A DNA stretch of 63,997 nt, counting the filler, from Octopus bimaculoides (lineage: Eukaryota): assembly GCF_001194135.2 (NCBI RefSeq). It is 9 parts of 9 records of this genome, joined end to end, with 100 filler letters (N's around TTAATTAATTAA, not from the genome) between each part and the next. Parts side by side here need not be neighbours in the genome. Positions count along the whole stretch, not along the records: positions 1 to 9,201 come from NC_069000.1; positions 9,302 to 22,533 come from NC_068981.1; positions 22,634 to 38,386 come from NC_068984.1; positions 38,487 to 45,068 come from NC_068985.1; positions 45,169 to 51,059 come from NC_068990.1; positions 51,160 to 58,737 come from NC_069006.1; positions 58,838 to 60,998 come from NC_068989.1; positions 61,099 to 62,845 come from NC_069004.1; 1 more part is not named here. One strand, 5' to 3'. A model generated the notes under the pieces. That model saw only the letters and a program-made list of their open reading frames with translations. It was not told the origin of the DNA and searched no databases. A program made the position numbers and the translations under genes. This document shows, piece after piece, positions 363 to 62,297 of this stretch (positions are counted from its first letter, which is position 1; each line of letters begins with the position of its first letter).

Positions 363-512
363 AGTTCGATTTACATAGAATAAAAATGATATCAGGAAGT
401 AAAGGTATTGAGTATTACGAGTGCAACAGCTGTTTCTGGGAGCCTGGTGATCCGGAATAATGATAGTTACTTGATTCCATTATCGAATAACACCGCCTCT
501 GTATTCAGGGGG
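363..512 (-). mobile_element. Diverged copy of the fold-back arm family at 46013-46378, with a degenerate hammerhead-like motif
   Basis: Minus strand reads cCTGAATA...ctcccaGAAACAGCTGTTgcactcgtaatac and aligns by eye with 46013-46165 and 50895-50990. Confidence 0.55.
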
Positions 513-555
513 AAATTTTACATTTAAGGTGTTGACAGGATGCATACTTATATAT

Positions 556-1310
556 AGGCGTGGTTGTGTGGCAAGAAACTTGCTTCTCAAACACATGGTT
601 CCGGTACTTTTCAGTTTCCGTCTACCAAATCTCCTCACAAGGCTTTACTCGAAGACACTTGCCCGGAACCATGCGTTTGGGAAGCAAGCTTCTTACCACA
701 CAATCGCGCCTATATATAAATATGCATATATGTATATATACAGGCATACTTACATACATACTTACATACAGACATACATGCATACATACGTTCACACACA
801 CGTGCACACACACACACACACACACACACACACACACACACACACACACACACACATACACACACACTTATACAGATTTTTTTTCGGCGCATGCGTGACT
901 GTGTGGTAAGAAGTTTGTTTCCCAAAATACATCTTGTCGGTTCACCTTGGGCAAGTCTCTTCTACATTAACGTCAAATCGACCAAGTCAGTGAGAGTGCA
1001 TTTGGTAAATGGAAACTAATATATATATATATATATATATATATATGAGTGTACGTGCGTGTGTGTGTGTGTGTATCTGTGTGTGTGTGTGTGTGTGTGT
1101 GTGTGTGTTCATGTGGTTGTCCTCCACCATTGCTTGGAGTATTTATGTCCCCGTAACTTAGTGTTTCGGCAAAAATACCGATAAAATAAGTAACAGGCTT
1201 TAAAAAAGGAAATAAGTAATGCGGTCGATTCATTCGACTAAAACATTTCGGAGGCGGTGCCCCAGCTTCGCTACACTCTAATTACTGAAACAAGTAAAAG
1301 AATAAAAGTA
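556..1310. mobile_element. Cluster of nested SINE copies with internal (CA)/(TA) microsatellites
   Basis: Head 'gtggttgtgtggcaagaaacttgcttc' at about 557 (+), an inverted copy at 608-710, and a + copy at 890-1310 ending in gaaacaagtaaaagaataaaag. Confidence 0.75.
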
Positions 1311-4300
1311 TTACCCACTTTTGTTTTTAAAATAATTAAGAATGTGGAAAACAGTATTGAACGTACATATATTACTTCAAAAATGCCCCAAATCAGGTTT
1401 CTGTCATCTTATCTTCCAGTTGGTATTTCCTTCAGAAATACCAGCTGGAAGAAAGAACCAACTTGTTCTCATAGAATATCAACTATAGCGATTTATAGGT
1501 GTTAAGACATTTTCTCAAAACTGACATTAGTGAACCACTAAGACGATGACAATAACAGTTCAGTTCATTACAATGTAAACTCCGTATTGAGAAGAGCATT
1601 GACCCCGTCTTCTCTATGCACGAACTTAAATAATTGCTGAAACTTTTCAAACGCATTTGATAAAAACATTACTCGCACACAAACATGTCATGATGTTGTC
1701 CCCAATGTCCACGACCAGTACAGTGTATTTTAAATTTTGTAACATTTTGAGATATGTATCTTGTATTATATGAAGTAAATTGCCTATTAGAGCATTTCAG
1801 TTTTCAGTCTTGTATATATATATATATATATATATATATATATATATGTGTGTGTGTGTGTGTGTGTGTGTGTGTGTGTGTGTGTGTGTGTGTGTGTNNN
1901 NNNNNNNNNNNNNNNNNNNNNNNNNNNNNNNNNNNNNNNNNNNNNNNNNNNNNNNNNNNNNNNNNNNNNNNNNNNNNNNNNNNNNNNNNNNNNNNNNNNN
2001 NNNNNNNNNNNNNNNNNNNNNNNNNNNNNNNNNNNNNNNNNNNNNNNNNNNNNNNNNNNNNNNNNNNNNNNNNNNNNNNNNNNNNNNNNNNNNNNNNNNN
2101 NNNNNNNNNNNNNNNNNNNNNNNNNNNNNNNNNNNNNNNNNNNNNNNNNNNNNNNNNNNNNNNNNNNNNNNNNNNNNNNNNNNNNNNNNNNNNNNNNNNN
2201 NNNNNNNNNNNNNNNNNNNNNNNNNNNNNNNNNNNNNNNNNNNNNNNNNNNNNNNNNNNNNNNNNNNNNNNNNNNNNNNNNNNNNNNNNNNNNNNNNNNN
2301 NNNNNNNNNNNNNNNNNNNNNNNNNNNNNNNNNNNNNNNNNNNNNNNNNNNNNNNNNNNNNNNNNNNNNNNNNNNNNNNNNNNNNNNNNNNNNNNNNNNN
2401 NNNNNNNNNNNNNNNNNNNNNNNNNNNNNNNNNNNNNNNNNNNNNNNNNNNNNNNNNNNNNNNNNNNNNNNNNNNNNNNNNNNNNNNNNNNNNNNNNNNN
2501 NNNNNNNNNNNNNNNNNNNNNNNNNNNNNNNNNNNNNNNNNNNNNNNNNNNNNNNNNNNNNNNNNNNNNNNNATATATATATATATATATATATAATATA
2601 CGCACACTTTATACATATTGGAAATAGGTTTACAAAAAGCTCGTAAATTAAATTGCGAGCATAATGGAGTGCGGGAAATTAAAATTTTCATATCAACTTA
2701 TCATATAACAATGTTTAGAAATAAGTAAACCAGAAGCGGAGAAAAAGATGGTGAAATGTAATTGATTTTTGACCAACCAGATCAATAAATAAGCATGTTT
2801 ATTTGCGTATCGTCCTAGCATCGTACTTACATACCTTCATATATATGCGTATATATGCAGGTATGTAAGTAAATACATATACATACATAATGTATATGTG
2901 TATACATTCTCACATACACACACACAGATACATATATATATATATCCTTTCAAGAAATATGTTAACTTTTGTTGTATAAGCTCATAAAGCCCTGATGTGA
3001 TTCTGCCCCATATAATTGAAAAATATGACCAATTCTTAACATATGACACTTCCCAAATGCTTAGAATTACGAATCACCAAGTGGCATGAATCGAAACATT
3101 TATGTAGGTTTTTGGCATCTGCCATTTCTTTTAAAGCTTTATAATTTATAATTTTTTGTTTTCATAAAAAACGTTTCTACCTCATAATGTCATACAAATA
3201 AATTATTCATACATCCAGAAGTCTCCATTTTCTTTCTTTCATTATTAACATGTATTACTATAATAATCCCTAACATATCGTCGAAACCTTCTTACATGAT
3301 AGTGATAGTGATTAAGATTAATCAGTAACATTATTGGATTATTTAATCCCTAACGAGGATCTGAAATCCTCGAATTGACTATATATATATATATATATAT
3401 ATATATNNNNNNNNNNNNNNNNNNNNNNNNNNNNNNNNNNNNNNNNNNNNNNNNNNNNNNNNNNNNNNNNNNNNNNNNNNNNNNNNNNNNNNNNNNNNNN
3501 NNNNNNNNNNNNNNNNNNNNNNNNNNNNNNNNNNNNNNNNNNNNNNNNNNNNNNNNNNNNNNNNNNNNNNNNNNNNNNNNNNNNNNNNNNNNNNNNNNNN
3601 NNNNNNNNNNNNNNNNNNNNNNNNNNNNNNNNNNNNNNNNNNNNNNNNNNNNNNNNNNNNNNNNNNNNNNNNNNNNNNNNNNTATATATATGTATGTATG
3701 TATGAAATGCATACATATATATATACATATATATACATACATATATATACACATATACATATACATATGCGTATACGCAATATATTCAGGCTTTATGTAC
3801 ATAGGAACGCATACATATATTTGCACACATTCTCATGGTTTGTTTAATGGTGTATTTTTGCAAAATTTTCGTAATAAATAATTTTATGATAACTTTATTT
3901 TCACATCATCTTCCCCATTCAACCTATCATCATATTAACCTCCCACATACATTTATGCATAGTTTTCATTAATGGCCATCATTAGATAAAAATTGTGGAA
4001 CGCTCCTCTTTTATTCTTCTCTCCTCACTAAAAAGTGACCGACTTTATTTCTTTATTATTCTCATTATTTTATTCCCGTTCATAACCTTTTGACATAACC
4101 AATATCCAGCACGCGCCATATTACTAATGCAATACAGGCTTCAACTCATAACACTGCGTAACAAGATCTTTCTCCTTGGGTAGTAACTGTTATTTCCTTT
4201 TTGCTTACTCCTAGAAAGTATGAAAAATGGCTAATATTTCCTTCAAATTCCACAGAACCCAACCCCACCGCAACACATGGCTGTGATGTTCCCCAACTAC

Positions 4301-61329: not shown

Positions 61330-61734
61330 TATAATCATGTAGAGAATAGAGAAACAAACGCAGGAAGAAGCAGGTCAATTGCGCTAGTTAGCCATTAATT
61401 TAATTAATTATGTGGAGATTATGTAATGTTACATTGACGATCGTTTCGATATGCCGACTTCGACTAAAATGTAAGACTCACTTCACCTCACTCTATTCTC
61501 ATACCACTATATGCATCCTTTACATTAAAATATCCCCTATCTTCTATTTTTGCATCTCTCACACCATGAACTTAAATAGACTTTTCAACATTCTGAAGAG
61601 ACCAAATTGGAAGATCGAAACGATCGTCAATGTAACATTACATAATCTCCACATAATTAATTAAATTAATGGCTAACTAGCGCAATTGACCTGCTTCTTC
61701 CTGTGTTTGTTTTTCCATTCTCTACATGATTATA
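61330..61734. mobile_element. Fold-back D: Penelope-type pLTR with a nearly perfect 121-bp inverted copy
   Basis: 61330-61450 is the reverse complement of 61614-61734 with only a few mismatches; hammerhead at 61588-61633. Confidence 0.85.
61588..61633 (+). ncRNA. Minimal type I hammerhead ribozyme motif, catalytic core intact
   Basis: ACATT-CTGAAGA-GACCAAATTGGAAGATC-GAAA-CGATCGT-C-AATGT. Stem I is ACATT/AATGT, stem II is closed by G-C and A-U, stem III is the palindrome ACGATCGT, and the cleavage triplet is GUC. Confidence 0.75.
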
Positions 61735-61918
61735 ATTATAAACTGCGGTTTACACGATACATTACCTGCCTCTGGATACCTTCTAACAAAGACGATACCT
61801 ACACAAGTAATCTCCAGGAGTGCCTTCGGATTTAATTATCCCCTGGTAGCTTAAACACTTCAGCCTATCCCTTGAATGTTTAAACAATCCTATCATATAC
61901 CTATATATATATATATAT

Positions 61919-62297
61919 ATATATTCTTAATGATTGATACGGAAGACGGAGTGTAACTAGAAGCTTTATTTAGCACAACAATAGTTTAGGCTACCTTCTG
62001 CACTGTTCCCTATTAGGTGGGGAACAGTGTAATGACATCAGATGCCCCTGCAGTGCAAAGAGTACCTCCTACTACCAACACACCATAATATCACTAGCAT
62101 CTAGTTTGGAGCAAAATTTAAAGCTTTTAACTCTTGAAACCTATTGCGTCACCTGATGAGGCTCCTTTGCATTGTGGGATGCATTATATCGTTCCCCACC
62201 CAATAGGGAGCAGGGCAGAAGGCAACCGAAACGCTTGTTGTGCCAAATAAATCTCCTAGTTACATTACATTCTCTGTATCAATCATTAAGAATATAT
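61919..62297. mobile_element. Fold-back E with a long-stem-II hammerhead motif
   Basis: Termini ATATATTCTTAATGATTGATAC / GTATCAATCATTAAGAATATAT. Right arm CAC-CTGATGA-[68 nt]-GAAA-CGCTTGT-T-GTG (62150-62242); the left arm is a more decayed copy. Confidence 0.8.

Follow-up and report, generated by a model that had tools for sequence, protein, structure and literature searches.

Five fold-backs in a 63,997-nt stretch of Octopus bimaculoides DNA (the window) are most likely the known insertion scars of endonuclease-bearing (EN+) Penelope-like elements (PLEs), mostly with decayed hammerheads. We consider it probable, taking the two statements jointly, that the fold-backs are such scars and that one of them, at 23234-23759, is a non-coding parasite whose tRNA-derived head classes it as a SINE and which is copied by a PLE enzyme, not by a LINE enzyme. 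A SINE mobilised by a PLE is the likely identity of this 23 kb element. To the fuller claim we give an even chance: that its family is a true Pol III SINE with a PLE as autonomous partner, in which a tRNA head has been joined to the pLTR end of a PLE, minimal hammerhead included, with 3' ends numbering in the order of 10^5 per genome in at least five related animal species and with PLE geometry of insertion. A search of the literature found no published description of a PLE-mobilised SINE. The fold-back layout as first noted is an already published PLE pattern and has little significance by itself; the 23 kb family could matter.

Fold-backs and the Penelope-like insertion pattern

Inverted-repeat pairs are present at all five places where the preliminary description had put fold-backs, with arms 83-98% alike and, as it said, 3' ends directed outward. 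BLAST of the five against each other finds no similarity, which bears out the remark that they lack a common primary sequence. Counted over gap-free columns, arm identity is 217/239 at 23 kb, 140/169 at 24 kb, 223/262 at 46 kb, 116/119 at 61332-61740, and 116/140 at 61919-62297. All five consist of an inverted 5'-truncated copy abutting the 5' end of a direct copy. The elements other than the one at 23 kb are as follows, with a strand given for single copies (solos) only.

190..540, minus strand: solo of the 46 kb family (BLAST E = 1.4 × 10−27), including the 3' extension and ending at (TA)n
7441..7585, plus strand: decayed element with its core at 7488, related to the 36897 element (75% over 61 nt, E = 2.4 × 10−5)
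7985..8400, minus strand: solo flanked on either side by a TA-rich microsatellite; its hammerhead (core from 8202) is free of defects; boundaries read by eye from the sequence
24033..24409: old fold-back (140/169 columns), a decayed hammerhead-like relic with broken core in both arms; TSD search negative
36791..37059, minus strand: solo reaching (TA)n at its 3' end, with an uncertain 5' boundary; its minimal hammerhead (core from near 36919) has decayed
45921..46555 (end approximate): 46 kb fold-back with an atypical hammerhead-like motif, ending at (GA)n and (TA)n
50862..51012, plus strand: solo of the 46 kb family by BLAST and alignment, truncated by (TA)n and an assembly gap
61332..61740: young fold-back (116/119 columns), an inverted 119-nt 3' piece from GAAAC plus a longer direct copy, joint at 61450/61451
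61919..62297: fold-back starting in (TA)n, with a defect-free hammerhead in the right arm at 62150-62241 that has a long stem II

Several details differ from what was first reported. The element boundaries had been drawn too narrowly, the 46 kb element running from 45921 to about 46555 and the 23 kb element from 23234 to 23759 within a 13-bp duplication. Because the copies at 421 and 50900 share the family of the 46013 fold-back, and those at 7488 and 36897 form one family, there are about 7 families instead of 10 unrelated items. A core in every arm does not hold either: the left arm of the 61330 element keeps GAAAC and onward and lacks CUGANGA, cut just before GAAA as had been observed, and that of the 61919 element lacks CUGAU and has TAAAC in place of GAAAC. 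The direct copy of 61332-61740 has an intact, defect-free hammerhead at 61588-61633, and to judge from the sequence 61741-61902 may be its one-sided extension up to (TA)n. The 46 kb family has four copies with start points within about 15 nt; its right arm is about 80 nt longer than the left by an extension common to the 421 copy, and its motif combines a stem II region of about 75 nt, a palindromic stem III, no in-register G10.1-C11.1 pair, and a weak stem I.

PLE insertions are known from the literature by three marks: a copy that is inverted and 5'-truncated, a tail of 30-40 bp that often sits at just one end, and a bias to microsatellites. Here, the shorter arm reaches a dinucleotide microsatellite in 3 of the 5 fold-backs against a background of 6%, a count made on alignment-defined fold-back ends only, solo ends being partly eye-chosen. 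A 3' extension is shown at the 23 kb and 46 kb fold-backs and not for the other three, with lengths outside the published range (27 nt, slightly short, and about 80 nt, respectively), and the target-site duplication (TSD) search was positive in 1 of 5, at 23 kb. EN+ PLE insertions with minimal type I hammerheads in the pLTR are known from the Penelope/Poseidon, Neptune, Nematis, and Hydra clades (Cervera and de la Pena 2014, PMC4209133; Craig et al. 2021, PMC8557442; Frangieh et al. 2024, PMC11167929). Like those insertions, the window elements have a minimal type I hammerhead in which one additional base follows position 9 and what remains of stem III is a palindrome. They also share the inverted 5'-truncated copy, one-sided 3' extension, and (TA)n targets, as well as the many solo motifs and the opposite-strand pairs 100-700 bp apart. 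They differ in that neither an RT nor a GIY-YIG frame was found among the ORFs scanned and a direct pLTR tandem is absent, in the tRNA-derived Pol III head with which the 23 kb unit starts, and in the 46 kb motif with its long stem II region and no canonical G10.1-C11.1 pair.

Anatomy supports the proposed PLE link, through the minimal type I hammerheads, the inverted and truncated copies, the 3' extension on one side, the targeting of microsatellites, and the 13-bp TSD. No autonomous partner with these ends was found, and no PLE reading frame in the window either: Pfam gave 0 PLE-type matches, with telomerase-like RT and GIY-YIG looked for, among 150 of 170 filtered ORFs, in a scan that left out ORFs under 55 aa and frameshifted remnants. 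Non-autonomy, claimed for all, is supported for the 23 kb family by its tRNA head and fixed 5' end, weakly for the 46 kb family by its clustered start points, and not for the others. Fold-backs outside 23 kb are likely the same scar made from PLE ends, as truncated autonomous copies or as non-autonomous units; with the 46 kb family as a weak exception, those families could be 5'-truncated stubs of autonomous PLEs.

That these are MITEs or fold-back DNA transposons with incidental hammerhead-like motifs is a reading already largely refuted, and we give it almost no weight. The long non-coding inverted arms would suit it, and a DDE transposase fragment is present elsewhere in the window. Against it, the arms differ in length and are cut short at their inner ends, lone arms occur at 421 and 50900, the TSD is 13 bp and not the short fixed TSD of MITEs, the motif frequency is far over that of shuffles, and one arm is a complete SINE-like unit. 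The expectation that routine annotation would call such elements MITEs is not supported by the 2026 Octopus vulgaris annotation, which has just 186 kb of MITEs and assigns 6.83% of the genome to PLEs, in agreement with a PLE-like density of about 6% in the window. Nor is it supported that they are under-described, since that annotation has 190 PLE families and opposite-strand dual hammerheads 100-700 bp apart were published in 2014.

Anatomy of the 23 kb element

At the center of the 23 kb fold-back there is a tRNA-like head, overlooked in the preliminary description. The parts of the element are these.

23221..23233, plus strand: left TSD copy, with 12/13 letters the same as 23760-23772, enclosing the whole fold-back
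23234..23260, minus strand: 27-nt 3' extension (tail) that separates the left arm from the TSD and is absent from the right arm
23261..23500, minus strand: left arm, an inverted, slightly 5'-truncated unit matching the right arm in 217/239 columns
about 23441-23500, minus strand: left-arm tRNA-like head, top match to the tRNA profile (17.7 bits, E = 1.5 × 10−4)
from 23355, minus strand: left-arm hammerhead core, U16.1 changed, one descriptor defect; (AAT)n between head and core
23504..23575, plus strand: right-arm tRNA-derived head, A box 23511-23521 and B box 23555-23565, 33 nt apart
23578..23612, plus strand: (AAT)n linker from head to 3' part, read from the sequence, of unequal repeat number between arms
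23660..23705, plus strand: right-arm minimal type I hammerhead, one descriptor defect (G10.1 lost)
23706..23759, plus strand: 3' part past the hammerhead, reaching the TSD without a tail; the unit's highest summed depth
23760..23772, plus strand: right TSD copy, pairing with 23221-23233

The left head is the best match in the 64 kb to a tRNA profile built from 46 phage tRNAs, where the best score in 20 shuffles is 11.5 bits; the right head scores 10.7 bits (E = 0.025), within shuffle range. An A and B box scan finds boxes in the right head that fit the published consensus and spacing. Neither ARAGORN at default settings nor Rfam called either 23 kb head a tRNA. The heads of the common SINE of the window, a dominant family that may be the one known by the octopus OK/OR names, have weak similarity to the 23 kb heads in 7 of 13 non-self rows, none of them significant.

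By the usual marks of a SINE, the unit has a Pol III-type head with A and B boxes near its 5' end, is short (about 285 nt) and non-coding, is dispersed at high copy number, and has a fixed 5' end. Its arms meet head to head and are flanked by a single 13-bp duplication, which is AT-rich and whose 12/13 match occurs by chance in 14 of 18,312 non-simple 13-mers. Since both arms within that one TSD carry head and 3' end, the composite moved as a unit. The 27-nt tail matches the consensus of the loose ends found behind 23750-23761 in four public runs. A TTTT stop is absent from the sense strand of both arms, and the 3' part matches no LINE piece within the window.

Like tRNA-derived SINEs (SINEBase, PMC3531059), the unit has a tRNA head with A and B boxes, a length under 700 bp, no coding capacity, and a TSD; unlike them, it has a PLE-type hammerhead 3' end where they have a LINE-derived region or a simple-repeat tail, and it has PLE-type insertion geometry. 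One could suppose a LINE-mobilised SINE with a captured hammerhead, the fold-back coming from two insertions or a rearrangement, and we regard this as very improbable. SINEs are by definition LINE-dependent, LINE fragments are common in the window, and schistosome Sm-alpha is described as a SINE-like element with a hammerhead. But both arms lie within one TSD, a simple-repeat tail is absent, and an optional extension like the one of 27 nt is characteristic of PLEs. Each arm also has a complete 3' end, an outcome that LINE twin priming is not known to give.

Schistosoma Sm-alpha and Sj-alpha (PMC2770079, PMC6765202) resemble the 23 kb unit, as described there, in a Pol III-type promoter followed by a type I hammerhead, a relation to tRNA, and very high copy number. 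Sm-alpha differs in its canonical hammerheads, which are described as cleaving multimeric tandem transcripts, and the available parts of those accounts mention neither inverted insertion of the PLE type nor an optional tail or a partner PLE.

Copy number and spread of the 23 kb family

The 23 kb family is found in five organisms at very high depth, with 22,064 and 15,844 aligned contigs in two DNA runs. Its read depth starts sharply at about 23500, the 5' end of the head. The summed depth of the head is about 4-8% of that of the 3' part (0.2-0.4 million versus 3.4-10 million in run X1), so most copies have no head or are missed as the head of this copy has diverged. One independent contig bridges head and hammerhead (23533-23677), the only one bridging head and 3' part among the 32 pieces listed (there are 41,601 further pieces); contig alignments were broken at the AAT run. 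Five listed joints tie the head to 3' positions at breakpoints unlike those of this copy, 2 of them joining opposite strands, as an inverted copy would.

These numbers bear on the strongest alternative, that all five fold-backs are ordinary truncated PLE ends and the 23 kb tRNA head came along in a minor subfamily or through a rare fusion, Pol III transcription not having driven the spread of the family. The low head depth and the single bridging contig among the pieces listed speak for it; against it stand the head and 3' end on both arms within one TSD, a head depth that in two organisms still amounts to single-contig depth thousands of times over and sets in abruptly on the 5' side, and the several head-to-3' joints with differing breakpoints. 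We judge it unlikely, and continue with a PLE-mobilised SINE as the preferred reading.

At 23673 the majority letter is G in 4/4 runs, restoring G10.1 for the family. Variants in the contig tables are unlinked. Among the rows listed, the free position N7 is the only catalytic-core site with frequent non-CpG variants (11-14% T>A in both DNA runs), and this confinement suggests that the source copies kept the catalytic core.

How such a unit might be copied can be outlined from the PLE literature. In vitro, PLE protein cuts both strands at AT-rich DNA, uses uncut RNA with two internal start sites that bound the tail, and does not need hammerhead cleavage; the role of the PLE hammerhead is described as unclear. 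RNA polymerase III would transcribe a source copy through its internal A and B boxes, and the transcript would be left uncut, since it takes two copies for a hammerhead that lacks stem III to fold. PLE protein would then bind the borrowed pLTR end, nick both strands of AT-rich DNA, and begin to reverse-transcribe from either of two sites lying downstream of the hammerhead, so that ends with and without the tail would arise. Two cDNAs primed off opposite strands and joined at their 5' ends would give a fold-back and a single cDNA a solo; inserted copies would then decay neutrally.

If this is true, SINE partners extend beyond LINEs. A 2024 paper added small-RNA-derived parasites of LTR elements, and a tRNA-headed PLE parasite would fill a third slot after those of LINEs and LTR elements. 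The unit of about 285 nt would be a natural minimal substrate for probing the PLE hammerhead, whose role becomes directly testable: an abundant short unit seemingly keeps the core in its sources, yet cleavage would deprive it of the 3' end that copying requires. The family could also account for some of the SINEs, a large fraction, that octopus annotations leave unclassified.

Hammerhead motifs in the window

A type I descriptor (core CUGANGA...GAAA-N-N-UH, stems I and II closed by G10.1-C11.1) finds 3 defect-free hammerheads in the window, at 61593 and 62153 on the plus strand and 8202 on the minus strand, versus 0 in 40 of 40 shuffles; allowing at most one defect, it finds 6 versus a shuffle mean of 0.28. 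The 23 kb cores at 23665 and 23355 have one defect each, and the motifs at 24 kb, 46 kb, 421, 50900, 7488, and 36897 fail the descriptor as they stand. Hammerheads are above chance, but most of the dozen or so motifs first proposed are decayed. The sole Rfam Hammerhead_1 match is 61590-61631 (27.3 bits, E = 2.9 × 10−4, under the gathering score of 34); the scanned stretch that gave it yields none to the 62153 motif, there is none in 23200-24450, and among the 150 of 274 rows listed for the whole window there is no hammerhead. None of 14 folded pieces has a significant folding z-score (best, -1.56), and the covariation score of the four 46 kb copies was reached by 77 of 500 shuffles, which is not significant. 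The 23660-23705 hammerhead has a 5-bp stem I, an extra base after A9, no loop III, a palindromic 15.2-16.2, and a predicted cut after 23700; the extra base after position 9, the palindrome, and opposite-strand dual minimal hammerheads have been described for PLEs.

Active retrozymes, the retrozyme-like elements of the preliminary description, would have multimeric transcripts that self-cleave as dimers, circularise, and re-insert. The likeness to animal non-LTR retrozymes (Cervera and de la Pena 2020, PMC7229834; Li, Clavereau and Pollet 2026, bioRxiv 10.64898/2026.07.22.740005) is, in the available parts of those sources, that of short, non-coding, dispersed monomers with a type I hammerhead and a proposed PLE dependence; proposed to be PLE derivatives, retrozymes leave many monomers behind. 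The three defect-free motifs would fit, and 23 kb family sequence is present in contigs of runs X17 and X18, RNA by guess. But retrozymes are defined in these parts by head-to-tail repeats with a hammerhead per unit and by circular RNAs, with no mention of a tRNA head, and the window has no head-to-tail arrays or tandem units. The fold-back cores lie on opposite strands, so that one transcript would hold one core, paired with its antisense arm, and could form no dimer. Core CpGs decay at 10-15%, the same as CpGs outside the core (in the 23 kb family, the one family tested), copies extend across the cut site and stop at the tail, not at the site itself, and of 9 Xenopus dimers tested only 1 cleaved. 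Active retrozymes are improbable here, and PLE-type insertion remains our preferred reading. A review describes retrozyme repeats as having no conserved motif that points to a partner. Across the window families, the stem I sequence differs from family to family yet still pairs.

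Anatomy of the 23 kb element

The 23 kb fold-back (23234-23759) consists of 2 inverted arms, left at 23261-23500 and right at 23504-23759. A 13-bp duplication with 12 of 13 letters matching (chance 14/18,312) encloses it, and because this single duplication encloses the pair, both arms arrived in one event. The order in each arm is a tRNA-derived head, (AAT)n, a 45-nt body, a minimal type I hammerhead, and a 55-nt 3' part, with 27 extra bases on the left arm. The head has an A box and a B box with 33 nt between them, matching the published Pol III consensus; TTTT is absent from the sense strand of both arms. 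A profile of 46 phage tRNAs gives the left head as the top match in the window (17.7 bits, E = 1.5e-4) and the right head as the fourth (10.7 bits), with 2 common-SINE heads ranking between and the best of 20 shuffles at 11.5. This profile is independent; it replaced a profile of 4 phage tRNAs, which had no match in the window and, extended by a BLAST-matched tRNA, reached E = 0.29 in a circular way. ARAGORN finds 0 tRNA genes by default and noise when relaxed (75 calls at ps75), and Rfam calls neither a tRNA nor a hammerhead at 23 kb. Just 5' of the hammerhead, at 23634-23656 (+) and in the left-arm counterpart, there is a second B-box-like or T-arm-like motif, possibly a second tRNA-derived piece in the body.

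Head and 3' end as a probable single family

The question is whether the head and the PLE (Penelope-like element)-type 3' end form a family or met by accident. Favoring a family, they are joined in both arms, and in the public sequencing run X18, contig 17 spans 23533-23677, differing at 13 letters and carrying an opposite-strand joint separate from that of the window copy. Another 4 head-to-3' joints, drawn from 15 of 53 joints and 12 of 31 inserts listed, are at 23504/23716 (opposite strands), 23528/23692, 23516/23738, and 23521/23719. Against a family, head depth is 4-8% of 3' depth, and a single one of the 32 contig pieces listed bridges head to 3' end, and reads were split at the AAT run. 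Depth drops tenfold at 23533, and the head is under-captured because the window copy has diverged there; copies may also often be truncated at the 5' end, or a second source lacking the head may exist.

The right arm, whole or in part, is present in 20 of the 24 runs listed, from 13 studies. The 19 runs with large shares of it represent 5 organisms, leaving out run X20 (insect metagenome, share 0.11). Contigs matching at 80% likeness number 22,064, 15,844, 1,949, and 1,410 in 4 runs. Viral, metagenome, and prokaryote genome collections have 0 matches. In the run X1, depth summed over the 3' part reaches 3.4-10 million, and long single contigs have 35-64, placing the 3' part on the order of 10^5 relative to single-contig depth, which is a depth ratio and not a copy number. 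Depth begins near 23500, and the loose ends ahead of that agree poorly. The 27-nt extension of the left arm recurs in those behind 23750-23761, where agreement is low in DNA runs, as expected if the tail is optional.

The right arm differs from the majority at 9 sites, and at 8 of the 9 the majority letter is the left-arm letter; majority letters restore G10.1. At 23678, 1 of the 9 such sites, both arms have a common non-majority letter, a weak hint that they came from a single template. Among 40 of the 54 variant rows listed, core CpGs vary 10-15%, like CpGs elsewhere in the unit, N7 shows T>A at 11-14% in both DNA runs, and U4 varies 1-6%. From these variants, inserted copies decay neutrally, and the core appears to have been retained in source copies.

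The literature searched, judged mostly from search listings, describes no SINE that combines a tRNA head with a PLE end and inserts in the PLE manner, nor any cephalopod hammerhead; subscription journals, Repbase, Dfam, and the supplementary files of Craig et al. and the bioRxiv preprint may already contain the family. The nearest precedents, judged from the portions of the sources available, are schistosome Sm-alpha (PMC2770079, PMC6765202), non-LTR retrozymes, butterfly short non-autonomous Penelope elements, and LTR-element parasites bearing tRNA. The combination of tRNA head and PLE-type end is probably a new form.

Frangieh et al. (PMC11167929) found that a PLE protein cleaves both strands of AT-rich DNA, that reverse transcription begins at 2 internal sites bounding the tail, and that the protein uses uncut RNA, the hammerhead cleaving only with protein. 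From those findings, we infer a route for the 23 kb unit, of which the anatomy is the part observed here. Pol III transcription would yield a monomer, whose borrowed pLTR (PLE terminal repeat) end would be recognized by the PLE protein; priming would occur from both strands at the target, and 2 cDNAs joined at their 5' ends would give the fold-back. The preliminary description had the hammerheads acting as dimers, but within a fold-back a cis dimer is impossible because the 2 cores sit on opposite strands, and the minimum-energy form of dimer co-folds was never the active dimer. Nor is its retrozyme-like label supported: tandem units, the defining trait of active retrozymes in the available text of Li et al. 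(bioRxiv 10.64898/2026.07.22.740005), are found nowhere in the window.

Fold-backs and hammerhead motifs across the window

The 23 kb element and the other 4 fold-backs (24033-24409, 45921-46555, 61332-61740, and 61919-62297) are real and all among the 7 longest inverted repeats listed, with arms 83-98% alike. Their layout as first described is of an already known kind. Craig et al. (PMC8557442), in the text available, report PLE insertions that favor microsatellites, include an inverted copy truncated at its 5' end, and often have their 30-40-bp tail on just one side; the accessible part of Cervera and de la Pena (PMC4209133) reports minimal hammerheads dispersed in thousands per genome, and opposite-strand dual motifs 100-700 bp apart, attributed to truncated PLEs. 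Here, a dinucleotide microsatellite lies at the end of 3 of the 5 fold-backs versus a 6% background. The suggestion that their density is under-described is not supported: the 10 elements (5 fold-backs, 5 solos) occupy 3,658 of 59,574 called bases, or 6.1% with some boundaries read by eye, close to the 6.83% (190 families) for PLEs in the Octopus vulgaris annotation, which also has 186 kb of MITEs, so by the part of that annotation available the density is ordinary for an octopus.

Three sites (61593+, 62153+, and 8202-) pass the type I hammerhead descriptor without a defect, versus 0 in 40 local dinucleotide shuffles, and 6 sites have at most 1 defect, versus a shuffle mean of 0.28. An initial descriptor requiring at least 3 contiguous stem II pairs gave 1 site, equalled in 4 of 100 shuffles; the final one needs 2 closing pairs, and because it was loosened after the sites were known, some tuning enters the enrichment. 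Simply counting cores gives 7 versus a shuffle mean of 0.73 and maximum of 5. Rfam matches a hammerhead at 61590-61631 alone, under its gathering score, and none is among the 150 of 274 matches listed for the full window (E up to 10). Of the 15 places where cores had been implied (10 arms and 5 solos), 3 hold an intact core and 2 a core with a single defect; the 5' core is missing from 2 left arms, and the other 8 places fail the descriptor. No folding z-score is significant among 14 pieces (best -1.56).

BLAST shows no likeness among the 5 fold-backs. Of the solos, those at 421 and 50900 are members of the 46 kb family, and those at 7488 and 36897 are related to each other. The 46 kb family retains a CUGANGA-like block and a palindromic GAAAC-AGCU-GUU-like block about 75 nt apart; an inner hairpin can form, the G10.1-C11.1 pair is absent in register, and covariation over 4 copies is not significant. 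All 4 copies start some 30-45 nt 5' of the core, suggesting that the 5' end is fixed. In the 46 kb element, one side carries an extension that is also present in the 421 copy, and the arm junction (46178-46191) is a perfect 14-bp palindrome.

An additional hammerhead-like motif at 2986-3113 (+) has a 6-bp stem I, one core defect, and a stem II region of about 90 nt; it lies in a 430-bp stretch bounded by 2 TA microsatellites and may represent a further solo PLE end. At 61316-62297, 2 unrelated fold-backs adjoin with 160 bp and one (TA)n run between, possibly an insertion hotspot, and the first of them may extend on one side through 61741-61902, a long extension. A short similar motif 3' of the hammerhead in 2 otherwise unrelated families, at 61676-61693 (+) and about 8012-8032 (-), might serve for protein binding or initiation, or might be a coincidence.

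Setting and other mobile elements

The window is AT-rich (about 33% GC) with many microsatellites and 4,423 N, and contains LINE and Tc1-type fragments; its SINE families suggest an octopus host. In the protein searches, the best named relative was from a gastropod, at 59%. Among the 150 of 170 filtered ORFs scanned with Pfam, the mobile-element matches are RVT_1, zf-RVT, DDE_3, and zf-CCHC, and there is no PLE reading frame.

Mobile-element fragments in the window
13587-14237, -, apparent C-terminus of a restriction-like-endonuclease LINE, judged by eye
22164-22532, +, LINE reverse transcriptase fragment, 437 relatives
37351-37900, +, DDE_3 transposase fragment (Pfam)
41236-41565, -, zf-RVT domain fragment (Pfam)
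63278-63988, -, 236-aa open frame with CCHC zinc knuckle (Pfam E = 9e-5; atlas 0.92)

The last of these resembles ORF1 of a non-LTR retrotransposon, a close homolog being absent at E = 1e-10. An apparent inverted repeat of 100 nt at 9202-9301 is false, being an assembly-gap artefact of 44 N, a 12-bp AT palindrome, and 44 N; 7 more places carry the same type of gap as scaffolding artefacts. A tRNA-like head of another SINE-like repeat lies at 27227-27270 (-) at 7.1 bits, which is not significant. At 548-719, an inverted pair of common-SINE heads (57 nt, 89%) adjoins the 5' end of the 421 element.
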